Source: Dimargaris cristalligena
Taxonomy: Eukaryota
DNA: 49,136 nucleotides
Assembly: GCA_003614675.1 (NCBI GenBank)
Contig: ML002277.1
Span: forward strand, 1 to 49,136
Reading direction: 5' to 3'
Shown here: one piece after another, positions 1 to 47,558 of the stretch
Position numbering within the stretch: the first letter of the stretch is position 1
Layout of the letters: each line of letters starts with the position of its first letter
Position numbers and translations under genes: made by a program
Notes under the pieces: model-generated
The model's database searches: none
What the model saw: only the letters and a program-made list of their open reading frames with translations
Told to the model about the DNA's origin: nothing

Positions 1-900
1 AAAATGGAGGAAAAATGACTATACTCATCAGGGGCAGGGGCAGGGGCTCATTCACTCTTCAGGGGCATACTTCCGATAAGTGTGAAAAATGGATTAAAAA
101 TAAAAGTAGGTAAAAAAATGTGGTAAGTTCACCACACCCTCCCCACCCAGAGAGCAGCATAAATGAACCAACCAATACTGATAGTGAGAGATGTAATGTC
201 ACCTTGGACCCAACCATGCCTAATGCTTTGTTTGGAATGGGTTGGGGCCTCACTGTTTCAAGAATAGTGGTACCTGGATGCAGGTTGCTCCTGCAGTAGG
301 TGAAGGAAGTGGCAAATTTAGATTCCAATGGCCACCATCACAAATAACCTGAGCCTGTAGGTGCCATTTATGACAATTACCCAGTATTGCCCAACAAGAT
401 TAAACTGTCCATCAGTAATAAAGATGAACATTCAACTGAGGGCCAGAAATAACCCAGGACCCATTCAAAATCCCAAATCAAAGTGAGGGCTTGCATATGT
501 AATGTTTGCAAGAAATCATTTTCAAGACTGTTTCTTCTTAACAGGCACATAGGAATACACACTGGGGAGAACCATATACCTTGTAATATTTGTAATAAAT
601 ACCTTTCAAGTGTCAATTATCTCAGGGTATATATGCAAACACACAACAGGGAAAAGCCTCATAGCTGCAAGAATTGCGAAAAAAGATTTATAGCAACTGG
701 TGATCTCAAAAGGCATATACAAACACACACCAGGGAGAAGCCTTTTACCTGCACAATTTGCCAAAAACTGTTTTCACAATCTGATAGTCTCAAAAGACAC
801 ATGAAAATACACCCCAGGAACTAACTATTCACCTGAGGCTATTGGGTATATCCATTCATGAAACTTGGTAGCTTAAACCATCATTTGAAAACAACCATTT
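1..900 (+). pseudogene. Degraded poly-C2H2 zinc-finger gene, copy 1 (5' end lies outside the window)
   Basis: Frame of ORF 483..824 has four C-x2-C-x12-H-x3-H fingers with TGEKP-like linkers (TGENH, NREKP, TREKP). Finger 2 has H->Y. A fifth decayed finger follows the stop (N*LFT*GYW...LNHHLK). Upstream, the same frame aligns to copy 2 (VTLDP...KLS...DEH...PRTHS) but has stops at 111, 297, 345 and 450. Confidence 0.85.
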
Positions 901-1768
901 GTGGGAATTCTCCTAATATTTGAATACAGCAAAAGTGTTGATGAATTACCCCAATCCAAATTTCAAATTATTATATAATTGGGTCATATTGACAATGGCA
1001 TCTGGTTAACTGAAACATAGCTTATAATGAATGCTGCTAGAGTTAATATTTCACTATAGCATTTTCTATTTTCTAATCAATTATAAATAAACCTACATTA
1101 TTCAGTTTGGCATATAACCACCAAATAAGCTTGATGTTGTTGCACTCCCCCCAATAGTGTATTAACCCCTAATTTGAACCCCCCCCCACTAAAATAGAAG
1201 GTGGTTGGGCTTATCTGTGGGTATATTTCATCTATTGGCAGACATTTGAAATGCAACCAACCTCTAGCATTTATTCAGTAGCCTAATAGCCATACTTGCT
1301 ATATACAGACTCCAAATGTGTTATCTGAGTATTAATCCTCCCCAACACTAATGCAGTCCTCACTCAGACTATGGTGGCATTGTATTATATGAGCAGCAGG
1401 AAACATATTACTGGGGGTGTTTGCTTTCATCTAGCAATTGGTGGGTATACTCTTGCTTCAGTGTTGTTGAACAATGTAGCCATGCTATACACCCAACTGC
1501 TTTGCTTACACACACTTTAAGGTACACAATATATATATATATATATAAGTGCAAACCCTGGTATTTCCTGGCATGATACACCCCCCCCATTAGAATTCGA
1601 TTGAGTGTGGTCATATATACATTATTTGTTATATATATACATTTTGGATGTAAAATATACCTTAGGTAGATTTTTTTTCCAGCCATTGCTAGTGGTTTTT
1701 CTTATTTCGGTCTTAACTAATAATATTGTATCTCTTACTCTTAACTAACCTTGATCAGTCCTCCTAAA

Positions 1769-2796
1769 ATGTGCATATTCAAATGGGCCAGCCTTGTTCT
1801 GGCCTTACTTTTCCTAGCATGTGTCTCTGAAGTAAACAATCCTGAATCTGACCTAGATGAATTTATTATTTATCCCCCTGGTCCCTTGTTTAGTATTGAT
1901 TACACAACTATTAATACAATCCCAGGACCCTGCACCAAGAACCCACCATTATCTGAGATCAACTATTATATAAGTCAATCAGACAGGGATGGATTGGGGC
2001 AATCCATTGACCAGTTTGAGTATACCATGGGTGACAGCAATACCACGGGACTCCTCCAACCAGCAGATTTACTTGACTCCAACTACCTCAAAAATCAACT
2101 TGCATTAGTGAGACCTCTTTCTTTTACTGATGGTAGTATATTAGTTGTGATTAGGGCCAATGGCAGGGGCAACAGTGTCATTTTAGACCCAGCCCTGGTA
2201 AGTGACCTAACTAGTATGGATTGGGACCCCACTGTTGCCAGTATTTGGGAATTCTGCTCCAGCAACAGGTTGGGGAAATGTTGGCATTTAATCCTGCCAG
2301 CTGCCATAACAAACAAGGTAAACCTGTGGAGGCCATTCAGCATGTGAATCACTCAATATTGTTCAACAAGCAGAAACTGTCCACCGGTGATCAGGATGAA
2401 CATTTGACCACAGACCAGAAGCAACCTAGGACCTATTCAAATCCAGGTGTCAAAGAGAAGACTCATGTATGTGACATTTGCAAGAAACCACTTTTAAATA
2501 TTGCTAGTCTCAAGAGACAAATGAAAATACATACCAGGGAGAAACATTTTACCTGCCAGTTTTGCTCCAAGTCATTTGCAAAATCTAATTATCTCACAAT
2601 ACACATACAAACACACACTGAGGAGAGGCCTTTTGCCTGCACATTCTGCCCTAAATCATTTCCACAATCTGCACATCTCACATCATATATAAAATCACAC
2701 ACTGGGGAGAAGCCTTGTATATGTACCATTTGCCACACATCTTTCCCACAATCCAGTCAGCTTATAACACATATGAAAACACACACAAACCAATAG
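1769..2796 (+). pseudogene. Signal-peptide + poly-C2H2 zinc-finger gene, copy 2, frameshifted near 2245
   Basis: ATG 1769 gives MCIFKWASLVLALLFLACVS (short hydrophobic N-terminus). ORFs 1751..2347 and 2221..2796 join by a frameshift where copy 1 has extra bases (copy 1 TVSRIVVPGCRLLLQ vs copy 2 TVASI/GILLQQQ). Four fingers with TREKH/TEERP/TGEKP linkers; two have lost a His ligand (H->Q, H->Y). Confidence 0.8.
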
Positions 2797-2989
2797 TAAT
2801 TCACAAAATTTGGTGACTAACACTGCTATTTGGAATTGTTAGCTTATAGGATATTTCCAAATATTTAATTTTAACAATAGTCAACACAATCCATATGCAT
2901 TGAAACCAGCATTTCAATAAATAAAACAATCTTAAAATTGGCCCTATAACTATGGATATTATAATATTAGTACAGTTGATAAGACCTGT

Positions 2990-3054
2990 CCCAAGTTAGA
3001 TCTTATAACCAAAAGGGCTACTTAAGAATCCCAGTTTGGGATTCCTAACTTGGG
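2990..3054. repeat. Interrupted inverted repeat
   Basis: CCCAAGTTAG (2990-2999) plus GAATCCCA (3026-3033) is the exact reverse complement of TGGGATTC-CTAACTTGGG (3037-3054), with a 3-nt loop. Confidence 0.7.
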
Positions 3055-4459
3055 CTATCACCTGGATGGCAATATAGTAAGTTCCCAATTACTATTGCTC
3101 CTCTGGTTCCACCAGAGTCTTCCAGATCCCAACAGACTTTAACTGATCTACTTTGTATTTCTTAGTATCCTATATTATTCCCTTCTGGACAATCCCACAG
3201 TATTATCTAAGTATTTTAATACCCTGCCCATGACATGCCTTATTAAGTCCTTAGCTTTTATTTTCCTCTTACCTATCCAATAAATCCACCTATATGCTCA
3301 CCCTTGATAGTGAGTGAACATCTGTCCTGATTTATTTCTATACCCACATCATTTTCCACCTGTACCTGTCAGGTAAGTAGGTGTTAATTGGGAGTACTTC
3401 TGGTACTGTATCAGATAGAAGCCCACCCACATATACTCTTAAAAGATATGGCCAAGCCTGCCACAGATCAATTTCCCTTACTCTATCACCACTATATCTC
3501 CCAGTTATTCCTTAAACATTAACTGCCCATGCCTTCTGATACCATGGGCCTAACCTGGAATCTTAATGCTGTACTGAATACTTCCTGTCCTCATTTTAAT
3601 TACATAGGAATGTAGTGCTTTGCATCTTTATATTAAATATATAATACATTATTGATTTGTCTACCTATGTGGCTCTTATTATTATACAAAAATTTGTGGC
3701 ATCACTGCCTAGCCTTTTTCTGGGGTCTTCGGGCATTACTTCACTACTATATTGCTGCATTTAGGCCTCAACAGCCAAACTAATATTTTAAAAATGATTT
3801 ACTCTGTAGTCAATTACAAGGGATCATCATTGTCATAACTCTTAATTCATAGTATTGCACCTCAATTTACTTTGCTCCCCCACCTATCTGCATCTATTAC
3901 TATCACATCCGGAATAGAACTTTGTTTCAATATCACCATTAGCGCTGAATAAAGTCAGGATCTTCAACGCTTTTAGTGTTGCAGCTATTTCTAATGATGT
4001 AGAAAACTGACATGTGTTCGTTGTTTTGGAGCCCCACTCACATACAGGGTACATTTATCCAGCCAACGAACTGCTATTTAGTTCAGTACAGTGTGATTCA
4101 GTGTGCTAAAAGAAGGCCGTATTCTCGTTACCAGTGCAGTTAACAAAACCGAATCCTCTGTACCATAAGTGCAGCAATGTTATAGCTGTCTCAACCCCCT
4201 CCACTCACTAAGCTACCTTACCATCAATCCCCCAAGCAATGACTTAGATTTTGGCGGCTTATGAAATATCCCCCCGCGTAACGTATTTCTTTGGGGAGTT
4301 AACTGAGACTAAGTGGTCTCGGTGGAATTAGTTTAGTTCCAAAGTCCCTCTGGGGACATGGCTCACCACGGTCATTCCAAATCGTTCAACATCAGTCTTT
4401 TTTTATCTGCTGCTAGCTCTTTATGCCAGGGCGTAAAGCTTCTACTAATCTCCGTTAAC

Positions 4460-5936
4460 ATGTCGAAATTCAACAATTTATTGGAGGTGACGAAGACCTG
4501 CGACACTATGCCGCCCTTCCCATTCGAACATCATATGAATGCCGACGAGTGCCCGGTGCCCTTTACGTTTAGGGACCAAATCGAGCATGTGGGGGGTTAT
4601 ATTCTCCCTCGGTTTATCCCCGGTCTTCTTCGTGCCTGCGTGGCGCTTGGCCAAGCGAACGGTGCGGTGGGTACGACGGGAACCGATTTAGAAGAGCAGG
4701 CGACCACCACCACCACCACTTCTACCACCCCCCTTGAGTTTTACCTGACGACTTCGACTTGTACAATAAGCGGCCGCCCCGTCTCACTTGCACAAGCCCA
4801 ACAGCTCCTCGCCCAGGAGTCACCCGCGGGTACCGTTGAGCAGGGGAGGTGGGCCAAGGTGACACTGGCCCCCCACTTGGCCACTTACGAAACTCGTACA
4901 CGGGCCCTACTGGACCTCGCCCGGGCCCTGCAAAAGGCCGGCGAGTTTCTGGGCCTCCAGGGCTGGAGGGATGAGCTGTACCCCGTGTACGGTACGAGTG
5001 GGCCGGGTCGTCGGGCGGTGGCAAACCAGGCCGCCTTTGCCGTGGAACGGGCGGCGGCACCCATCTTTGGCATCCAAAACTTTGGGGCGCACATTAACGG
5101 TTATTCCTACGCTGAAGATGGCACCCTGTTTATGTGGGCGGCTCGGCGGAGTTCGACTAAACCCACCTGGCCTGGAATGCTCGATAATATGGTAAGTGAC
5201 GATTTTGTGGCTTGTGTCTGCTGAGAGAGCGGGGTAGGGTAAAGTGGAGTGAAACGTAATAATACTTCCCAGGGAACTAAGAAGCCTCCCTATTTCAGAA
5301 TAATCATTTACGTGTGGGTATCCATATAATATGTGGCTCACTTGAAGCAACCTGGCCGTGCTTGAATCCAGAAATGCCATTATCCGTTTATTTCGATGCT
5401 ATTATCCGGAATCTTCTGGGTACTGTACTGATCCGACTGCTGTCTTCCACGGAACTGATGGTTTTAATTGTTGCTCCTTTTTTGGGTAATAGGTGGCTGG
5501 CGGAGCTCCTTACAATATGGGTATTCGTGAAACGGTTGTTAAAGAATGCCAAGAAGAGGCTTCCATTCCCGCTGAAGTTGCCCAACGTGCTCGGCCCGCT
5601 GGTGTGGTTTCCTATATTCACCACAACCCAAATGGGTTGCAACCGGAATATCAGTTTGTCTACGATCTCCAACTACCCTGGGACTACGACGGGCTGCGCC
5701 CCAACGATGGCGAAGTAGAAGCCTTTTACCTTTTTAGTATGTCAGAGTTGCGAGAACGTCTATTGGCCGGGGAGTACAAGCCCAACTGTGCGCTGGTGTG
5801 CCTTGATTTCATGATCCGCCACGGAGTCCTTACCCCCGAAAATGAACCGGACTATCTGGCCATTATCCAGAGTATGCGGCGGGCCTTGCCTCTACCCGTT
5901 CCATCATTTGATGTTTACCGGGACCGAGTCCATTAG
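4460..5936 (+). CDS. Nudix hydrolase of the YJR142W / Tnr3 N-terminal / plant NUDT20-24 family; exons 4460-5191, 5493-5936
   Basis: Motifs GWRDELYPVYG, VERAAAPIFGI, GAHINGY, RRSSTKPTWPGMLDNM|VAGG, Nudix box KECQEEASI, PNDGEVEAF and KPNCALVCLDFMIRHG. GTAAGT...TAG intron 5192-5492. An upstream in-frame ATG exists at 4358. Confidence 0.92.
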
Positions 5937-17091: not shown

Positions 17092-18526
17092 GGCAGTTTT
17101 CCGGTATTGAGGCTGTTGGGGATGGTGGTCAATTTATAGGGCTCTACTGGTAAAAAGTACGAGGTTGCAATGCCTCAAGAAGTCGATAATGCTAGTAAAT
17201 GGGGACTTAATTGCAACGAAGAGTAAATTACGTGCAGGACGAGGCCGGGGTCAAGGAAATGTGAATGAATGGGGCGGCAAACTGAAATGGGTCGGGGCTT
17301 GAAAATATATGACCGCGTAATTCAAGGAGGTTAAATGGGTAGTTTACAAAAACACGAGATGGAGGCATGCAGTATTGAAAGGGAACTGAAATGCAGCTGG
17401 CAAGAGGCTGATTACGAAGTTTGTCTATCGTTTGGGTTTTGGTGCGGTATGGTATGGTATTTGGAAGCCAGGGGCCAATCCTTAGTTCCATCAGAGTATT
17501 TGGCCTCGCCAACTGCAGCCCTTCTCTAAACCAGTAGCTAACCAACTCTTCGACTATTTAATGTAACATCGTACGCAGTCACCATCGTGACTAAATTGTA
17601 TTCTAGGGCCTACACCATACCAGTCCTATCCTATATTTCAGATTGTAAGTATATTTTACAAACGAGGACTAGGTAGATAGAATGGCCCAGTCTATTGTTT
17701 ACGTAAAACCTATATTTGGACAAATCCGGATATGCTCTACTTGGATTCCCCGCATTTATAGGAAATGGTTAAGGTCGCCAGAGAAGCGCCTTATTTTCAT
17801 AATAAAGTTACAGACGGGCATGTGTACAATATAATCCGTGAGGAATTTGAGGGCGGATAGAGGGGGTAGGATTCAAAGTAGCGTGTAATTAGAGAAGACT
17901 AGGCGGTTTTTGCCATTTTGGATAACCCCATACTAGGCCCCCCAACGGTATGGAATTGCTTTGGGGAAATGCAATACTTGATTCAATGGTTCAAGGCTGC
18001 CACAACATGCTCCTTATATGGTATTCCACCATGTGCGTTCAAGGACTAAGCGTCCAATATCAGGTTATACCAATGCACCATTTAGGGTTAAACATTTGAG
18101 ACCCACTGTCGACTTCCACCACTTGTATAACACCGGCTGTCTTCCGGTATTACACTTGGGTAACAAAAAAGGAATATTGGTGGATTACTGGAGTAGCTAA
18201 GCGACTACTCCCAACTCGCTCATACCTTTCCGGTATGTGGGATTGGACGTAGGGGTTTACTCAACCCTGTGGGTATAGAACAAATGGCAAATCTATAAGA
18301 ATAACGGCACGCCCCTCGCCTAGGGTGGCCCTCGCTCGCTGATACTCCCCCTATATTTTCGTTGTGGTAATTGGCGAGTTCGCCATTAATTCTAAAGGGG
18401 TTACTTTCGAGCCCTTATTTATATATACCCATTCAACCCCCCTGTCTAGCTGTTTGCCTCCCTGTGGCTCTAATTATTACTGTCTGCGGATTTCCTAGAC
18501 CCGGAATTTAGCTGCTTTATTCCACA

Positions 18527-21410: not shown

Positions 21411-23638
21411 ATGTTCCGACTACTGCGAGACCAGCCCAGTTGCTTGCGGGCCCTTCAGGTAAGTTCAGACTATGTGTGTGTTCCTATAGGTAGACTCATT
21501 CGCAGACCCTCCCCCACAGTCTCAGAGCCCATCTCTTAAGCCAGGCCGCAACCCCCGTTGTATATACTAGTTCAACTCCCAGGCCATAAAAGGGCATGTC
21601 TCCATCCGGCCACTTAGACCCAGCCAAGCCTATCGGACTGCCACCAACTTGAAAATGAAGCTAACGACCCTCTTTTGAATATGTCTTTAATCGACACTTT
21701 CACCTGCACCCTCGCTGACCTCTAGAAAACTCCTCGGGCCACGACCAACCCGATTAGGTTATCCATTTCCCTCGTCCGTTCGGCACACACCCTCGGCAGT
21801 CCACAGGTAATCTTCGTTTATAACCAAAATATCCTCTTGCAAACTCCAGTCTGCCCACCAAATACCATCCCGTTGCGCGTTCCCCGAAAGCGTGGAAATC
21901 CACCTGATCCTTAATCCATTTACCCCGGGGGCTAATTACCACGTAGCAATTGACTGGCATATACCGCCGACATCTTTGTCCGTCAATTAGTTCCTTGTGA
22001 CTAGACTATACCCATTTAACTCCTCTTTTCTCATAAACTATGCCAATACTGACTGCCACAATCAGCGGCTAACTCGCGACGCATGCCTAACCCGGCCCCT
22101 TCGCATCGGCTTAACGGGCCCTACTGCATCCCGCCTGTTCCACACCTCTGGGGCCAGCCACAAGGTTGTTCCCTTCAACCTCGCGGACATTGGTGAAGGC
22201 ATCACTGAGTGTGAGATTATCCAATGGTAGGTTCAGCGGCCCATTCCACCCATGCCCTACTTTAAAATCCATCGAGTAATATGGACTATACTCGCCGTCT
22301 TCCCGGCTCCTTAAACCATCCACTAATCCGAAGACCCATCCACCTAAAACCCACCATGTCTCCTTATGACGATACAGGTTCGTTAAGCCTGGTGATACCA
22401 TTGCTCAGTTTGATAAGATCTGCGAAGTCCAGTCGGACAAGGCCTCCGTGGAAATTACCTCCCGCTATGATGGCCGCGTAAGTAAGCTCTACTATGATGC
22501 TGGGGCGGTAGCTAACGTCGGCAAACCTCTTGTGGACATTGAAGTCGGTGATGAGGGCGGGGAGGTTGATCCTGAGTTATCCGAGCCCGCCTCCGCTCCA
22601 AAGGTCCCTCCTCCTACCCCCAGTGCCCCAGCTCCGTCAACCAGCCCATCGATTCCTCCCCAGCTTGCTTCCACTGCGGCTCAGGATATCATTGCCATTC
22701 CGGCTGTTCGACGGTTGGCCAAAGAACATTCACTTAATCTAGCCCATATCCAAGGCACGGGCAAAGGAGGTCGCATCACCAAGGAAGACGTCCTCAACCA
22801 CCTCAATGAAGGTCCCGCCGCCCAATCACCGCCAGCCCCTTCCGCGTCGGCGACCCTATCCATGGCTGGGTCAGTCGAGGAGAGACCCCTGGCCAACATT
22901 GAACGGGCCATGTACAAATCCATGACCGCGTCCCGCACCATCCCGGATTTTATCTTCACCGACGAATTGGAGCTGGACACCCTAATGGGTCTGCGGCAAC
23001 AACTTAATGGCTGGTTGACCGCCTCGGGCCAGGCCGCCGGGGGCCCCGGTCTGGACAAGGTGTCCTACATGCCCTTCATGATCAAGGCCCTGTCCCTCGC
23101 CCTGGCCAAGTACCCCATTCTCAACGCCGCTATCCTCCACGAAGACCAGGGCGCCGACCGGGCGCGCATCCAATTCCGCGCCTCCCACAATATTGCCCTG
23201 GCGATGGACACCCCCCAGGGGCTCATTGTACCCAACATTAAAGACGTCCAGGCAAAAACTTTACTCGAGGTGGCCCAGGAATTGCAACGACTGGTGGCGG
23301 CGGGCAAGCGCAACGGCCTGGGTCCCGCAGATATGAAACACGCCACCATCACCTTGTCCAACGTGGGCATGATCGGCGGTACGAAACTGGGACCCGTCGT
23401 GCCGTCCGGTACCATGTGCATCGGGGCCATTGGGAAAATCCAGCGGTTGCCGCGGTTCGACATGGTCACGGATCCCATCACCCAAGTGACCCGGGAGGTG
23501 GTCGTTCCGAAACATATTGTCAATGTGAGTTGGGCGGCGGACCACCGCGTTGTGGACGGGGCTACAATGGCCCGGTTTGCGGTGTACTGGCAGAGTATAC
23601 TACAAAACCCCGGCCTATTCCTGGCCCAGCTTAAATAG
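21411..23638 (+). CDS. DBT: Branched-chain 2-oxoacid dehydrogenase E2 (dihydrolipoyl transacylase); exons 21411-21458, 22066-22226, 22378-23638
   Basis: Arg-rich presequence; lipoyl domain LADIGEGITECEIIQWFVKPGD...CEVQSDKASVEITSRYDG; E3-binding PAVRRLAKE...GTGKGGRITKEDV; catalytic WAADHRVVDGA. Confidence 0.95.
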
Positions 23639-25638: not shown

Positions 25639-26727
25639 GGTGAACAACTAAGAAATGTAGGGGAAGTGGTTAGTCGGACAAGAATATCTAATGCGTCAAA
25701 GTGATTCAAGATTTTTGCTTGATCGTTGTTGGGTCGAGTTTGGAGTAGGGGTCTGATTTGCCACTGGATCTATGGACCTGTTCTGCATTGCATTCCGCTA
25801 TTACTGAGTAACTAACTACTCTACTCTACCTATTAGGTTAGGCGGCAGGCTAATCAATATAAAATGGTCCCGTGGTGGGACATGGATTTGCTGATAATCA
25901 AATGCTCCCCTCAATTTCCCAGGTCTTTTTTAACCCTTGAGCCACATTACCTATGTGGATACTTAATAAATCAGAACAATAATACATTAACATCTGAATT
26001 GGTTACATTAATTACCACATCACAAGATTTGGTTCAAATATTACCTTAAATCAATGGAGTTTCCGATGGCTGGCCCCATGGTCTTAAATACTATCCTGTA
26101 CGTCGGTCTGTCTACATCATCATAATATAGTTATGCCCCTCCACTGAAGCTATAGCTAAGTTGACTGGCAAGGGCTACTATATTGGGTTATTCGCTGTAT
26201 TTGAATTGAACCTTGGGACATTCTCCGCCTCCCCCAAGACCGACTGTTGTGTAGACTTTGCCACTCTAACTATATACACCTATGCCAAGCAAAGCCCAGT
26301 TGAGCCTCAGGCTTGGTTAGTTGACTCACATCAAATAACACCCGCCTCCCTACCCTTCACTGCCCATGCGCCTCCCCCCCCTTGCGAATGGATAAGGCGT
26401 ACCCATTACCATGCAGCTGCATTTGAGGATTTTATGACGCCTAAACTGAGTGCGTAAGCCCTCTCCCCTGGACATGAAAGGGGTAGGCAGGTGGGGGAGT
26501 ATGAAACGGATCAGAGCATACCTACCTCTGCCTGTTTTCTCCGAAATACCCATTCATTTCCTGCCGAACCCACTCCCAACTACATGGATTTGGCCTACCA
26601 CGTATTGCCATATAAAGCTGAGCTACCACCCCTCGCCTCCCTAATTGCACATCTTTTACCCTGTAACTAACTACTATTTTCCTTAATAACCTGCTTCTAG
26701 TCCTTGACGCCGCCTATATTCCACACC

Positions 26728-28431
26728 ATGATATTCAAGTCCATCTATCCGTCAATTGACATCCCAGCCCTCGACATTGGCCAATTTATCCTACAGCACA
26801 TCGATACCCATGAATTTTGGCAAGACCGCACCCGCCCCGTTTACATCGATGCCGCCACGGCCGAAGTATTGACCGTGGGCCAATTCCGCACCCAAGTCAC
26901 CGAACTGGCTTCCGGTTGGCGGCACCGGGTGAACCTTAAACCGGGCACCGTCGTGGCGATGGTGTCCCCCAACACTATTTTTTTCGGTGTCCTGACTTTG
27001 AGTGTTATCCTCGCCGGGGGGGTGGTCGCTTTTGTGAATCCGACGTACACGGCAGGTGAAATGGCCTATCAACTCCAGGACTCGGGGGCGCATTACATGG
27101 TCGTCGATAATGAAATAGCGACCAAGACCTTGGAGGCGGCCACCATGGCGGAATTGCCCCACAGCCGGATTTATCAAACGGGCCCTTCCCCATCGGACCC
27201 TAAAGAAAGAGGGGGGAGAGGAGGAATGACCGGGTCGAGCCTGCCTTCAATTATGGAACAGCGGGATACCCGGCCCTGGCAACAACCCCCGACCATACCC
27301 CCCAATACGCCCGCCTACATTTGCTATTCATCCGGCACCACCGGTTTATCCAAAGGTGTCGTACTCACCCACCGCAATATGGTCGCCAACGTCAGCCAAG
27401 TCAACGCCTTTACAACCCATAACCAAAACACCCATAATGGCCAAACCCTGGCTGGAGTTCTCCCTCTGTTCCATACGTATGCCCTCCACCTGCTTCTCCA
27501 CCTCAATTTCATCCAAGGGTTTACCACCATCATATTCCGGAAATTTCGCTTCGAACCCTTCTTACAAGCTGTGGAGCGGTTCCGTATCCACTGCGCCTAT
27601 TTGGTACCCCCTGTGATTGTAGCCCTGTTCAAAAACCCGTTGACCAAACTCTACGACTTGTCGTCGTTAAACCGCGTAGTTTCCGGGGCTGCGCCATTCT
27701 CAGCCGAGTTGGTCAAGGAAATCCTGGATTGCTACCATACCCGGGTTCACCAGGGGTACGGACTTTCGGAGGCCTCCCCCGTGGTGTTATTCACTGCCCC
27801 CCAGACCCAAGACTTGGGGTCCGTCGGTATCCTCATACCTAATATGGAGGCCAAGTTTGTGGACGGGAAGGGTAAGGAGTTGGGCTACGGCGAACAAGGC
27901 GAACTCTGCATCCGGGGGCCTAATGTTATGTTGGGATACCTGAATAACCCCGAAGCCACGGCCCAAACCATCGACGCCGACGGATTCCTGCACACGGGTG
28001 ACTTGGGTTATGTGGATGAGAATGGCGAGTTTTATATTACCGACCGGTTTAAGGAACTCATCAAATACAAGGGGTTCCAAGTCCCCCCCGCCGAACTGGA
28101 GGCTATTCTGGTAGCCCACCCCAAGGTACGCGATGTAGTCGTCATTGGCGTGAATGACGTGCAACAAATCACCGAAGTGCCGCGGGCGCTGGTCGTACTG
28201 CAGCCCAAATATCAAAGGGACGACTCCCAGCTGTCCCGAGCTGCTGTGGCCCAGGAACTCATCGCATATGTGAATAGTCAAGTGGCCCATCATAAACATT
28301 TGCGAGGGGGTGTATATTTCATCGATGCAATCGTCAAGTCCGCTGCTGGTAAAATCCTGCGCCGGGAAATGCGTGAGATGCATCTCAAATCGATTCAGGC
28401 GCGGGAGGACGAGGGCTTAGGTATGGCGTAG
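26728..28431 (+). CDS. 4-coumarate-CoA-ligase-like AMP-dependent acyl-CoA synthetase (intronless)
   Basis: AMP-binding YSSGTTGLSKGV, plus QGYGLSE, GELCIRGPNVMLGY, LHTGD, DRFKELIKYKGFQVPPAELE and KSAAGKILRR. Confidence 0.95.
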   Translation: MIFKSIYPSIDIPALDIGQFILQHIDTHEFWQDRTRPVYIDAATAEVLTVGQFRTQVTELASGWRHRVNLKPGTVVAMVSPNTIFFGVLTLSVILAGGVVAFVNPTYTAGEMAYQLQDSGAHYMVVDNEIATKTLEAATMAELPHSRIYQTGPSPSDPKERGGRGGMTGSSLPSIMEQRDTRPWQQPPTIPPNTPAYICYSSGTTGLSKGVVLTHRNMVANVSQVNAFTTHNQNTHNGQTLAGVLPLFHTYALHLLLHLNFIQGFTTIIFRKFRFEPFLQAVERFRIHCAYLVPPVIVALFKNPLTKLYDLSSLNRVVSGAAPFSAELVKEILDCYHTRVHQGYGLSEASPVVLFTAPQTQDLGSVGILIPNMEAKFVDGKGKELGYGEQGELCIRGPNVMLGYLNNPEATAQTIDADGFLHTGDLGYVDENGEFYITDRFKELIKYKGFQVPPAELEAILVAHPKVRDVVVIGVNDVQQITEVPRALVVLQPKYQRDDSQLSRAAVAQELIAYVNSQVAHHKHLRGGVYFIDAIVKSAAGKILRREMREMHLKSIQAREDEGLGMA

Positions 28432-36200: not shown

Positions 36201-37619
36201 GTAAGTTTAACTACGCTCCAGACCCATATAGAGCAGTATCGGTATGCCTTTAACCCCTGTCCTGCTGGGCCACCGTGTACCTAGACGGGTTCCAGTTCCG
36301 TGCTCCCAAAGAGTGCGAGCATCGCTGGTGGATCCGTCCTCTATTCCTCCCAGCTGATGGGTGCCACAGGCCAACCCTTGGGGTGTATGTGTGTGTGTAT
36401 AGGGGGGGGGTGACCTTCCAGCCCCGCGGGCGTAGTCATACTATACAATAAGGACTTATTCGGCCTGTGGTGGATTTCATTACTGCCCTCCCCCAGCGGC
36501 TGGGTGCCGGAGCTGCCCTGCGTTGACGTGCACGGGGTAGAAGACTGCCCCTAGTTCGTTTGGTGGGTTGTTTTCTTGTTGCTGAAAGAGGGGTCTATGA
36601 GGCAAAGTCAGGAAATCGAGACAAGGCCACGCGTGCGCACAGCCGGGGTTTGGTGCATGTATGTGGCTATTGTGCCGAAAACATCCCGGTCATCCCGCTT
36701 CTGTTTGCACCTACTTTCTCTATGTATGCTGTATGCGCACCCCCCCCCTCTTTCTTCATGGGGGAGGAGACCCCAGCGGCGGCGGGGGGAGGTGGCTACG
36801 CTTTCCCTATCCTTTTGTTTATGCGCGCCCGGCTTGGCTGTCCGTCATCGGTTAGAGTTCGACCTTTCTTATTTTCCACCCGCGCGGTCTCTCTCTCTCT
36901 CCATCACCCCATCCGTTGGGATTTTTATTGAAGGTGCCATGGTGGTGCTGGGCCTTTCTTTTCGAAACTCCCTTCTTTCCTTCTGGCGAGGCCTTCTATA
37001 TATTATTCCTTCGCCCTCCTTGGCCTACACTACCTTCTCTGTGGGGGTTTGGGTTGCCCATTAAGCCAAAGACCCTTGCATATAAGCGCACACTGCACCT
37101 ACTTGCCACCGCCCTATCGGTATTGTATAGTATTACTTTCTATAAGAATTGTCCGACTCTGACATCCCAGCCCATTGTCACTTTCGCCCTATTTTCTCTT
37201 TTCCTTCCTCATTGCATCACTGCTACTACTACTACTACTACTACTACAACCCCTCTAACCCTTGATTTTCCTGCCTCCCCCCTAACCCTTTTTTCTTGAG
37301 TGACCCGGCCCTTGTCCGTTCCCTCTCGTTTGTATTTTCCAGTGCCCCGTACCGGCTCCCCCTCCCCAGTTTCCCCACTGCAAAGCCCTCTCTTTCTTCC
37401 ACACTCAAGCACACATTCCCTCTCCGCCCCTTCTCCAACTTTTATTGCCCTTGGTCAGCTCCTAACCCAAACTCTCTTTTTGCTGTCTATTTGAATTCTT
37501 TTTGCCCATTGTATATTCGCCTGTTCCTTGTATACACAGCCCTTAGCATTCCACAGCTGGCCTTAAAGTGTTCGTATAGCATTCCGTTTTGTGAAACCCC
37601 TCCCTCCCTCGTCTGATAG
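36201..37619 (+). other. Putative long 5' leader intron of the kinase gene
   Basis: Strong donor CCG|GTAAGT at 36201 and a pyrimidine-rich tract ending CTGATAG at 37619. Alternative acceptors lie at 37579, 37663 and 37686. Confidence 0.55.
37223..37247. repeat. (CTA)8 microsatellite
   Basis: Read directly from the sequence. Confidence 0.9.
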
Positions 37620-37696
37620 TACTTCCCTGCTCGAGTTGCCCCCACCCCTACACGCCTTGGCAGTTTATCGGCCCTACCAACCTTAGCCTTGCAAAA

Positions 37697-40465
37697 ATGA
37701 TGCAAGTACCCATGCCTATGCCCATGGTGGACGACAAAAGCCGCATGATCCCTATGCCAAATCCTGCCATGGGCCGGCCCATCACCACCGCCAATGCCGA
37801 GTCCCAAATGCACGCCATGATGAACGAAATGGACCCATTCGCCCGGCGGCGCTCCGCCTTCCCAACCCCCTCCGTCAATCCGTCCGCCTCCACTCACCTC
37901 AAGCGGTCCACCACCGCCGCCTCTAAAGACCCCACCAGTGCCCCGACCATTTACGGTTACCGGTTAACCAAGTCCCTTGGTCGGGGTACTTTCAGTAAGG
38001 TCTACCTGGGGGTAAATAAGGCCACTGATGAGCATGTGGCCCTCAAATTCATCAAAAACCGCCCCGGTAGCAAATCGGATAAACACGAAATCCGCGTGCA
38101 ACGGGAGATTAACATCCTCACCCTCATTCAGCACCCCAATATCATTTCCATCAAAAAGCGGGCCGATACCACCAATAATACCATTTTAGTCATGGAGTAT
38201 GCCCAGGGTGGTGAGCTGCTCTCATATATCCGCCAGCACGGCCGATTACAGGAGCAGGAGGCCCGCGTCTTTTTCCGCCAAATCGTCTCCGCCATTGACT
38301 ACTGCCACAAAAACTGCGTCCTACACCGCGACTTAAAGCTCGAAAACGTCATGCTTGATGCGCGTAAGAGTATCAAAATCATTGACTTTGGCTTTGCCAA
38401 TACCTTCCGGTACGATAGCCTACTGGACACATTCTGCGGTTCCCCCTTCTACGCAGCCCCTGAAATGGTCAACGGGGTGAAATATGTTGGCCCCGAGGTC
38501 GATATTTGGAGTATGGGGGTCATTCTTTTCTTCATGCTCTGTGGCCGAACCCCCTTCGAGGGTGAAAACCTACGCGAAATCTACCAGAAGATTTCCCAGG
38601 GCCATTACACCATTCCCCCCAACACCAGCATCTCGAATTCCGCCGCCGACTTGATCCGGCGCATGCTTAATACTGCCAAGGAGAGCCGGATCAAGATGCA
38701 CGATATCCGCCATCATCCCTGGGTAATGGAGACCTACGGGCAACCCCCCGACGACCATTTCCCACCTAGGCTTAATCACTCGTCCCTACAGCCCCGGCCC
38801 CAGATTATCAAGGAGCTGGTCGCCCGCCATAACTACACCGAGCGGGAGGTTCGGGAGTCTCTCAAGGCCTATCCACCTGGCAGCCATCCCATTGTGGCCC
38901 TCTACTACCTCTACGCCGATTATCTAGATCGACGCCAACGTCAGAAATCCCAGAGCATCAGCCGACAACCACCTTCCCTGGAACAAAAGACGTCGACTAG
39001 CCGGGACAAGCCGGCTATCCGTATGTCCATGCCCGTGGGCGATCGGGCACCCTCCTCCCCGGGCGCCTTTACCAAGAATGGTTCAATGGCGGACAATAAA
39101 GCCCGGCGCAGCTTCCACCCGGTCAATTCCAACGGAGGCCTCCGCCCCGACGGACGGGGGGCGTATGGCTCGGCTGAGGAGCATGCCCGATTGCATGAAA
39201 TCCATGCCGAACGGGCTCGCAAGCATAGTAACTCCTCGGCCCGGCGGGAGTCTAATGGCCACCCCTCGGTCCCCGGAGCCCCCTATATTCCCGGAGGTCC
39301 ACCTAACAGCGAGTATTTTGAGCGTCCCAAACATCATTCCCAGAATTTGGGCGAGAGTCCAGGGGGCGGTGGTACCTCGTTCTTTTCATCCATCCTGGGC
39401 GGTTCTAGGTCGGGTGTTAACAGTAAGAGCGGCCACTTTGACCAGGGTTCATTGGGTAATCTGTCCGTCGGAGTCATTGATTCCTCCGCCCCGAACCTGG
39501 AGAAGAAGAATCGCAAGTCGGCCATTTTCCACTCCATCATTATGAAGGCCCGTAAATCCATGCCGTTCCTTATCCGAGCCCAACATTCGCCCCCAACCTC
39601 GCCTATGATGCCCTCGCCCCACATTGTTCCGCCCACCCCCCAAATCCGGGCTACGAAAGGCAGGTCGCTAGACCCCCGCTTCCAGAACCCCATGGACGCA
39701 TTTAACAACGGTGCTCTCGATCCCCGGATGATAGCGGTGCCTATGAGTGCCCCCGCAACCCCTCTATCGCCATCGTTTCCGCCAGGCCCGATGCCCTACT
39801 CGGCTTTCCTGCCTGGCCAAGCGGTCCCCGCGCCGATGCCACCGCCCCCCACTTCCCCGCTTAATCACCCGGCCATGCATATGATGCACCCCATGCCACC
39901 CACCAAACATGTTATTACCCAGTCGAATTTGGGCGAGCCCCACCTAGTGGCCTCCCCCCGGGTCGGCTCTGAAATTACGGCGGCGGCGGCGGCTGCCGCT
40001 GCTTTAGCACCCCAGTCCGCCCACGGCTCCCCTACCCTACTGGCGGTTCCCTCTCCGATGATGCCTCCGCCGCAACCCCCCCTGGTCGTCCCCGCGCCCA
40101 TGCCGCCGCCCCACATACCTGCCCCATCGTCCCCCCTTGGCGGTGGCGCCCCCAGAAAGACGGATGACGAACGGACCGGTCTGTCGGCTTTTTTGGAAGA
40201 CCGGCGCAACACTAACCTGCCTTTGGAGGAGCTACGGAGCCGGGTGGACCGGATCGTCGCGAACCACAGTATTGAGAGAATCGAAACGAAACCCTTTAGA
40301 TTCTTCTGTAGCTGTCGAGCCGGCAAGTACCGCGGCCAGTCGTTTGACCTTATTTTCACCAACCCGGCCCCAGGGACGAACTCCATTTGCTTCCGCCACA
40401 CCAAGGGGAATTGGATTACATTTAAAAAGATGGTCAATCGATTCTACAAGGACATGGGCATTTAA
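37697..40465 (+). CDS. CAMK-group KIN1/MARK-like Ser/Thr kinase with UBA-like segment and probable C-terminal KA1-like domain
   Basis: LGRGTFSKV, VALK, HRDLKLEN, DFG, TFCGSPFYAAPE and YVGPEVDIWS. A long Pro/Ser-rich linker precedes a compact C-terminal domain ending FRHTKGNWITFKKMVNRF. Confidence 0.93.
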   Translation: MMQVPMPMPMVDDKSRMIPMPNPAMGRPITTANAESQMHAMMNEMDPFARRRSAFPTPSVNPSASTHLKRSTTAASKDPTSAPTIYGYRLTKSLGRGTFSKVYLGVNKATDEHVALKFIKNRPGSKSDKHEIRVQREINILTLIQHPNIISIKKRADTTNNTILVMEYAQGGELLSYIRQHGRLQEQEARVFFRQIVSAIDYCHKNCVLHRDLKLENVMLDARKSIKIIDFGFANTFRYDSLLDTFCGSPFYAAPEMVNGVKYVGPEVDIWSMGVILFFMLCGRTPFEGENLREIYQKISQGHYTIPPNTSISNSAADLIRRMLNTAKESRIKMHDIRHHPWVMETYGQPPDDHFPPRLNHSSLQPRPQIIKELVARHNYTEREVRESLKAYPPGSHPIVALYYLYADYLDRRQRQKSQSISRQPPSLEQKTSTSRDKPAIRMSMPVGDRAPSSPGAFTKNGSMADNKARRSFHPVNSNGGLRPDGRGAYGSAEEHARLHEIHAERARKHSNSSARRESNGHPSVPGAPYIPGGPPNSEYFERPKHHSQNLGESPGGGGTSFFSSILGGSRSGVNSKSGHFDQGSLGNLSVGVIDSSAPNLEKKNRKSAIFHSIIMKARKSMPFLIRAQHSPPTSPMMPSPHIVPPTPQIRATKGRSLDPRFQNPMDAFNNGALDPRMIAVPMSAPATPLSPSFPPGPMPYSAFLPGQAVPAPMPPPPTSPLNHPAMHMMHPMPPTKHVITQSNLGEPHLVASPRVGSEITAAAAAAAALAPQSAHGSPTLLAVPSPMMPPPQPPLVVPAPMPPPHIPAPSSPLGGGAPRKTDDERTGLSAFLEDRRNTNLPLEELRSRVDRIVANHSIERIETKPFRFFCSCRAGKYRGQSFDLIFTNPAPGTNSICFRHTKGNWITFKKMVNRFYKDMGI

Positions 40466-45458: not shown

Positions 45459-47558
<2,100 letters not shown>

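Follow-up and report, generated by a model that had tools for sequence, protein, structure and literature searches.

Does the beginning of contig ML002277.1 of Dimargaris cristalligena (assembly GCA_003614675.1) hold a gene for a zinc-finger protein that the fungus would export, or the remains of such genes? The window, that is, the whole stretch of 49,136 bases that was analyzed, opens with two diverged copies of a coding region that ends in four C2H2 zinc fingers, called here copy 1 (114-824) and copy 2 (1769-2796). A preliminary description of copy 2 saw in it a signal peptide fused to a finger array and proposed a secreted transcription-factor effector. The Dimargaritales are described as haustorial mycoparasites (PMC9866270), and the two tandem copies are, on their alignments, members of a small family recorded only from the mycoparasite D. 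cristalligena. The best explanation of the locus, towards which the balance tips slightly, is that both copies derive from an ancestral signal-acidic-linker-finger gene, copy 1 being long dead and copy 2 recently disabled. That the family encodes a secreted gene regulator is plausible from the build of its proteins, and unproven at the locus 1769-2796.

Two reading frames of one ancestral gene

Copy 2 is read on the forward strand in two frames. Frame 2 is open over 1745-2347, and its first ATG, at 1769, starts an N-terminal open reading frame (ORF; 1769-2347) that reads MCIFKWASLVLALLFLACVSEV. The second ORF, in frame 1, is open over 2215-2796, carries the linker and the fingers, and overlaps the N-terminal ORF. 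Frames of this length are rarely produced by base composition: when the block 1-3950, which contains both copies, was simulated 2000 times as a first-order Markov sequence, the longest frame reached at least 193 codons in 4 of the 2000 sequences and two such frames occurred in none of the 2000.

The N-domain coding part of copy 2 comprises 158 codons (1769-2243, frame 2). Its homology to the relatives stops at VAS (2243), the frame staying open down to the stop at 2345-2347, and the similarity to the tail of the annotated D. cristalligena protein P0001 resumes in the finger frame from 2248. The zone between, 2244-2255, has about 10 nucleotides fewer in copy 2 than in copy 1, distributed as gaps of 1, 5 and 4 nucleotides at copy 2 positions 2245, 2249 and 2255. 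P0001 passes without a change of frame from DWDPIVAS to the linker, in agreement with the true frame of copy 1 and with the finger frame of copy 2, and copy 1 carries the N-domain tail, the linker and the fingers in a single frame. Since neither copy 1 nor P0001 shifts between N-domain and linker, the ORF of copy 2 that bears the signal and the one that bears the fingers are, by this comparison, the halves of one ancestral gene. The preliminary description had placed a frameshift near 2245 and obtained one protein by repairing it. The frameshift is real and was located correctly, as the deficit of about 10 nucleotides and the switch in homology at 2243/2248 indicate, and the two ORFs are not separate by origin. 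The linker, given earlier as about 210 amino acids, amounts to about 214 residues counted from residue 21 to the first finger cysteine, and the at least two tandem copies announced are borne out by the diverged copy 1.

Copy 1, on the same strand, has a single frame that leads from the C-terminal part of the N-domain through the linker to four fingers and that three in-frame stops interrupt; its 5' part is missing, cut off by the contig start. The paralogs P0004, P0008 and P0001 match it by tblastn over 117-353, and its finger array, the second of the window, is placed at 453-824, with the fingers themselves at 498-812. Both copies share 66% DNA identity over 482 aligned columns, confined to the coding part, and DNA comparison detected no similarity between their flanks. 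The stops at 297 (TAG), 345 (TAA) and 450 (TAA) have CAG, CAA and CAA as their counterparts in copy 2. All three are C-to-T changes in glutamine codons at CpA, not at CpG; therefore, transitions accumulated there beyond the CpG decay that is described below.

Relatives and public annotation

Residues 1-143 of copy 2 were scanned with phmmer (HMMER) against 1.84 billion representatives at E ≤ 1e-3, giving six matches, four of which are hypothetical proteins of D. cristalligena (E 7e-13 to 2e-6). P0003, a subtilase-like protein of 1148 amino acids that contains repeats, and P0006, which is acidic and repetitive, were dropped as compositional matches of the low-complexity type; apart from them, the scan found no relatives of the N-domain outside D. 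cristalligena. Word-index homology searches with the N-domain returned nothing among longer or near-length proteins, and single-protein scans of metagenome loci with the copy 2 N-domain and with P0001 returned no relatives. The search with the finger ORF recovered only the window's own model and generic C2H2 proteins, with no named Dimargaris paralog among them.

In two assemblies of the species the paralogs are represented by the models P0001/P0005 (two alleles, or two models, of one locus), P0002/P0007 and P0004/P0008. All six are short and consist of the N-domain only (116-192 amino acids), with an N-domain identity to copy 2 of 34-43%, and P0002 and P0007 end within that domain. For the tails of P0005 and P0004 and the last part of P0008, the best alignment is to linker or pre-finger DNA translated out of frame, so that these loci appear to be either frame-disrupted or mis-annotated. 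The out-of-frame pre-finger region fits the P0004 tail better than NPASCHNK of copy 2 does.

At the locus itself public annotation covers 2278-2796 alone, as the 172-amino acid P0009, 100% identical to the finger ORF. The N-terminal ORF carries no annotation: an exact look-up was empty and no cluster representative was found at 50% identity or above. Read against copy 1 and P0001, P0009 corresponds to the half of the gene that lies downstream of the frameshift. Signal and fingers are united in none of the seven annotated models (P0001, P0002, P0004, P0005, P0007, P0008 and P0009), and neither copy of the locus offers one intact ORF that does so, copy 2 being frameshifted and copy 1 interrupted by its three stops.

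A signal-like N-terminus followed by an acidic region

The N-terminus of copy 2 (1769-1828, forward strand), MCIFKWASLVLALLFLACVS, aligns to MRVFKTAGLVLVFLSVARAS of P0005. It was judged by simple rules (layout of n-, h- and c-regions, Kyte-Doolittle (KD) hydropathy and the residues at -3 and -1) without a trained predictor. By these rules it has an n-region MCIFK (+1), a run of 15 residues free of charged residues and of N, Q and H, and a maximum KD(10) of 3.25; LAC/VSE and CVS/EVN, the slash marking the cleavage point, are sites compatible at -3 and -1. The Sec-type layout is satisfied by copy 2 (MCIFK, WASLVLALLFLACVS, CVS/E), by P0005 (MRVFK, TAGLVLVFLSVA, ARA/S) and by P0007 (MHACK, MTGLLSLLFLVCTSGA, SGA/N). 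P0001 and P0005 start MRVFKTAGLV..SVARAS/EE, and P0007 starts MHACKMTGLLSLLFLVCTSGA. The hydrophobic N-terminus is kept at all three loci where the N-terminus is visible (copy 2, P0001/P0005 and P0002/P0007) and is, on these alignments, a family feature; the preliminary description had tied its proposal to the presence of such a segment in intact paralogs, and the relatives whose N-terminus is visible do carry it. It is plausible that the segment corresponds to a cleavable Sec signal peptide, with cleavage after CVS in copy 2 or after ARA in P0005.

The suggestion that the second codon of copy 2, TGC, is a deaminated CGC fits the relatives, which have MRVFK in P0001/P0005 and a histidine at that position in P0007, and it fits the CpG-to-TpG/CpA decay of the block. 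Alignment positions 2 and 18 are both occupied by R in P0001/P0005, by C in copy 2 and by H or C in P0007. Cysteine or histidine at these arginine positions supports the deaminated CGC because CpG deamination of CGN codons gives exactly those changes.

Behind this start, the mature N-domain of copy 2 contains 19 acidic versus 6 basic residues and a single cysteine. No Pfam family was found in the N-domain, and a PDB profile search with it gave no match at E ≤ 1. An AlphaFold model built from 5 sequences has a mean predicted local distance difference test (pLDDT) score of 35.2, and the acidic stretch of about 140 residues is probably largely disordered.

The same features could have another meaning. 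The alternative that survives best, unlikely as we consider it, is that the hydrophobic N-terminus is a membrane anchor, an organelle presequence or a product of chance instead of a secretion signal, the family being, now or once, an ordinary endogenous nuclear C2H2 activator. An acidic disordered region (the 19-to-6 excess, a pLDDT of 35) followed by C2H2 fingers is indeed the standard build of an activator, and a mature N-domain with only one cysteine is unlike many Cys-rich secreted effectors. Moreover, zinc fingers rely on reduced cysteines and are ill-suited to the oxidising secretory pathway. It is harder to reconcile with this alternative that three loci share a basic n-region (MRVFK, MCIFK, MHACK), 12-16 uncharged residues, small residues at -3 and -1 (ARA/S, CVS/E, SGA/N) and an acidic stretch, and that by the positive-inside rule the C-terminal part lies in the lumen. 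In addition, effectors of the C2H2 type are reported to be secreted (PMC7672089).

The zinc-finger arrays

The four fingers of copy 2 are located at 2470-2784 on the forward strand. Fingers 2 and 4 are intact, while fingers 1 and 3 have each lost a zinc ligand: finger 1 has glutamine for its first histidine, together with an F-to-L change, and finger 3 has tyrosine for its first histidine. The pattern C-x2-C-x12-H-x3-H therefore fits two of the four fingers in copy 2 and three of the four in copy 1, where finger 2 shows an H-to-Y change. Both arrays score above the curated Pfam thresholds, with 45.1 bits for copy 2 and 63.7 bits for copy 1 against zf-C2H2 (PF00096; cut-off 25.2), and 42.5 and 69.1 bits, respectively, against zf-H2C2_2 (PF13465; cut-off 40). 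The period of 28 residues per finger is visible in the DNA as repeats of 84 nucleotides.

Among proteins of known structure, the fingers of copy 2 match the sequences of ZFP568 (the best, E 2.8e-49), Aart (5.9e-43) and PRDM9 (4.7e-38), as well as CTCF; the alignment with ZFP568 shows the Q and the Y of copy 2 at histidine positions. The linkers between fingers are TREKH, TEERP and TGEKP in copy 2 and TGENH, NREKP and TREKP in copy 1, the exact TGEKP being found in one of the six. Hence, the earlier reading of at least four TGEKP-linked fingers holds for the number of fingers, but only one linker of copy 2 is an exact TGEKP and two of its four fingers are without their first histidine. The array resembles the classical Kruppel-type C2H2 factors (ZFP568, PRDM9, CTCF, EGR1/Zif268) in its strong sequence match and in passing the Pfam profiles. 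It differs from them in the histidines and linkers just mentioned, and the classical factors are nuclear proteins without a signal peptide.

A CpG-depleted block

Both copies and their spacers lie within a block at the contig start (1-3950; GC content of about 38%) that is almost devoid of CpG. The observed-to-expected ratio (o/e) of CpG is 0.00-0.27 in every 500-nucleotide bin from 1 to 4000 and 0.67-0.88 in the next four bins; over the whole block it is about 0.06, versus about 0.8 elsewhere, with 10 CpG dinucleotides within 1-3968. CA and TG are enriched (1.26-1.38) and TA is not (0.94). The same erosion is seen in codon choice, CGN triplets making up 0 of 8 arginine codons in copy 2, 0 of 14 in copy 1 and 64 of 70 in a kinase ORF on the same contig. 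The pattern is the footprint of CpG deamination and not the CpA-to-TpA signature of ascomycete repeat-induced point mutation (RIP), because TpA is not in excess. We infer that the loss of CpG reflects long-term cytosine methylation of repeat-like DNA.

The border of the block, at 3900-4020, is very sharp: the CpG o/e rises from about 0.06 to about 0.8 some 450 nucleotides upstream of the ATG (4460) of a DUF4743/NUDIX gene. Such a border suggests, as far as base composition can tell, a methylated domain with narrow limits in this early-diverging fungus. In Linderina pennispora, a related species, 5-methylcytosine (5mC) is described as almost confined to repeats and, in the lineage, as scarce (PMC11258239). 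The likeness to methylated or hypermutated effector compartments of fungi, and to the repeat-confined 5mC of Linderina pennispora and Phycomyces, lies in the sharply bounded, CpG-poor block beside ordinary genes. The differences are that this block is without the TpA excess of ascomycete RIP and that its methylation is deduced from the bases.

Outside the copies, the block has 15 ORFs of 40 amino acids or more; ten of these were scanned for remnants of transposons, and none gave a Pfam match better than E 0.1. The repeats detected in the block were the finger units and a (TA)n tract, with no terminal repeats. (TA)n tracts with short inverted repeats lie between the copies, at 1527-1546 and 1630-1640, and a CAGGGG repeat is present three times at about 29-46, at the contig start.

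Decay and constraint in copy 2

Whether copy 2 still works has to be judged from signs that point in two directions. On the side of decay are the frameshift, the lost zinc ligands, the want of CGN arginine codons and the state of copy 1, and also the pattern of substitution: between the copies, the ratio of nonsynonymous to synonymous substitution rates (dN/dS) is 0.55 (fingers 0.44, linker 0.85), hardly lower than the 0.64 and 1.1 of wrong-frame controls, and the differences are distributed almost evenly over the three codon positions (54/42/56). For long constraint speaks that the coding similarity of the copies has outlasted that of their flanks. Copy 2 is, besides, free of stops in 326 codons, an outcome that a neutral simulation gives in 0.44% of cases at 0.17 substitutions per site, which is half the divergence between the copies, and in 17% at 0.05. 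The simplest reconciliation of decay and constraint, given these sequences, would be that copy 2 stopped working only recently. Because the deletion of about 10 nucleotides parts the signal and acidic half from the fingers, and because two of the four fingers have lost a histidine, copy 2 is most likely a recently disabled copy, or recent pseudogene, beside a dead copy 1 in a CpG-eroded block. At best, it would survive as a split remnant of which the annotated ORF, with the fingers alone, is expressed.

We propose the following course for the locus. The ancestral gene would have specified four parts in one frame: a cleavable-looking signal (about 20 residues), an acidic, probably disordered stretch (about 140), a linker (about 70) and an array of four fingers of the classical C2H2 type. 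The block in which its descendants lie would have lost almost all CpG to TpG and CpA through cytosine methylation. Copy 1 would have died long ago, as its three nonsense codons suggest, and it is truncated by the contig end. Copy 2 would have remained open for most of its history, until the deletion at 2244-2255 severed the signal and acidic part from the fingers. In an intact member, the N-terminal signal would lead to co-translational entry into the endoplasmic reticulum, cleavage near ARA/S or CVS/E, and export. If such a protein were delivered from the haustorium into the host fungus, its fingers might bind host DNA in the nucleus, as reported for the MoHTR effectors discussed below.

Several points weigh against this explanation. 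Both ORFs of copy 2 are stop-free, so that any inactivation would be recent; dN/dS has little power at such divergence (proportion of synonymous differences, pS, 0.47); and functional proteins with degenerate fingers do exist. In the public annotation the finger ORF, P0009, counts as a gene of its own. There are several in-frame GT..AG intervals, e.g., GTAAAC at 2318 with AG at 2370 or 2373 (53 or 56 nucleotides), and an intron starting at 2318 could rejoin the frames and keep DWDPTVAS, at the cost of conserved linker residues. The shift at 2244-2255 could be a sequencing or assembly error. The paralogs are known as protein models alone, so that fingers at any paralog locus are unproven, and a Q lies inside the hydrophobic run of P0001. 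Finally, the block could have lost its CpG by another cause than methylation.

Some of these points converge in the possibility that copy 2 is a working gene for the full protein with signal and four fingers, the frameshift being removed by a short unannotated intron or due to an assembly error. We regard this as improbable. The absence of stops from both ORFs, with its chance of 0.0044 when neutral decay is simulated at 0.17 substitutions per site, speaks in its favour, and introns do occur in the neighbouring genes, for instance one of about 300 nucleotides (GTAAGT..TAG, 5191-5492) in the DUF4743/NUDIX gene. Of the many in-frame GT..AG candidates within copy 2, two look best as introns. The first, with the donor ctg/GTAAGT at 2198, a CTAAC box and AG at 2241, 2262 or 2268, was discarded as the explanation of the frameshift: its GTAAGT encodes L-V-S within DPAL..MDWDPTVAS, a stretch conserved at the protein level in P0001, P0004/P0008 and copy 1 and hence coding, and copy 1 has no GT at the equivalent site. 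The second, aag/GTAAAC at 2318 with AG at 2370 or 2373, would remove the linker residues KPVEAIQHVNHSILFNK that are common to copy 1. Copy 1 and P0001 require no intron at that place, the annotators' model leaves the ORFs unjoined, and two of the fingers are short of a histidine ligand.

Just as improbable, in our view, is that the locus consists at present of two separate genes, one for a small secreted acidic protein (1769-2347) and the other for a fingers-only nuclear protein starting at the ATG at 2278. It is from 2278 that the public P0009 is called, and the six paralog models, N-domain-only as they are and in the case of P0002 and P0007 stopping inside that domain, look like the first of these proteins. 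Yet the N-terminal ORF is neither annotated nor represented in the clusters at 50% identity or above, and its last 34 codons are out-of-frame linker DNA, read in the same wrong frame as the tail of P0005. An internal ATG 33 nucleotides past a frameshift is the default pick of a gene caller, and P0009 lacks a separate promoter region, its start lying within the ORF upstream. The very low CpG of the block and the animal-like top matches of the fingers might suggest a foreign or animal origin; this was rejected in view of the N-domain paralogs found elsewhere in D. cristalligena, on further contigs of two assemblies. Recent inactivation of copy 2 remains the reading that we prefer.

Comparison with known effectors

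The design proposed for the family was likened in the preliminary description to the transcription activator-like (TAL) effectors of Xanthomonas. The likeness is one of concept only, namely a parasite protein sent to the host nucleus in order to bind DNA. TAL effectors are bacterial, have an unrelated fold of 34-residue repeats and are delivered by type III secretion.

Closer counterparts exist among fungi. MoHTR1 and MoHTR2 of Magnaporthe oryzae are reported to combine a signal peptide with a C2H2 domain, to be secreted, to reach rice nuclei and to bind host promoters (PMC7672089), and a third protein of this fungus, MoHTR3, is described as small, secreted and of the C2H2 type (PMC10189765). 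The statement that TGEKP arrays are not normally secreted overlooks these proteins. In the three MoHTR proteins, as they are presented in those reports, a fungal secretion signal is joined to a C2H2 DNA-binding module, as in the design of the Dimargaris family, and the MoHTR proteins are likewise lineage-restricted. Their authors liken the MoHTR proteins to the single-finger GAGA type (PMC7672089), whereas in Dimargaris an array of four fingers follows a spacer of about 214 residues. The hosts would also differ, a plant for MoHTR and another fungus for Dimargaris, and the Dimargaris copies are broken and known from sequence alone. A literature search on nuclear effectors of mycoparasites returned no paper on such a protein by title or abstract.

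Of the secreted transcription-factor effector first proposed, what stands is the combination of signal and C2H2 fingers as a real design of the family, recorded only from a haustorial mycoparasite; what is not supported is its presence as a working gene here, with copy 2 frameshifted, copy 1 stopped three times and none of the seven models joined. Beyond the locus, one may speculate, at a low probability, that intact Dimargaris members (e.g., the locus of the partial model KAJ1984501) are secreted from the haustorium, enter the nuclei of the host fungus and reprogram host transcription through their four fingers, and that the family is turned over rapidly in a methylated, CpG-mutating compartment of which the window would show the casualties. 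If true, the case would be the first of a transcription-factor effector passed from one fungus to another.

The remainder of the contig

Beyond the first 3.95 kb the window contains mostly ordinary eukaryotic genes. The nearest, on the forward strand at 4460-5936, encodes DUF4743 (46.8 bits) and NUDIX domains in two exons, represented by the ORFs 4337-5224 and 5493-5936 on either side of the intron mentioned above. ORFs of housekeeping type follow for a 2-oxoacid dehydrogenase E2 with lipoyl and E3-binding domains (22370-23635), an AMP-binding enzyme (26701-28428), a Ser/Thr protein kinase (37595-40462) and, on the reverse strand, an alpha/beta hydrolase (45462-46340). Four further long ORFs, starting at 18512, 19436, 32880 and, on the reverse strand, 29294, have no Pfam family. 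D. cristalligena is described as the only non-zoosporic fungus in Mycocosm that matches a model for the major capsid protein of giant viruses (PMC13533422, 2026); nothing viral was noticed in the window, where no search aimed at viruses was made.

Implications

As it stands, the locus is mainly of value for annotation: its public model gives the finger half alone, and several paralog models of the family translate linker DNA in a wrong frame. The CpG-free block at the contig start, with its sharp border, is a usable marker of targeted cytosine methylation, or of methylation-driven mutation, in a lineage where 5mC has been called scarce. If an intact member of the family were secreted and reached host nuclei, the MoHTR type of mechanism would be extended from an ascomycete plant pathogen to an early-diverging haustorial mycoparasite.

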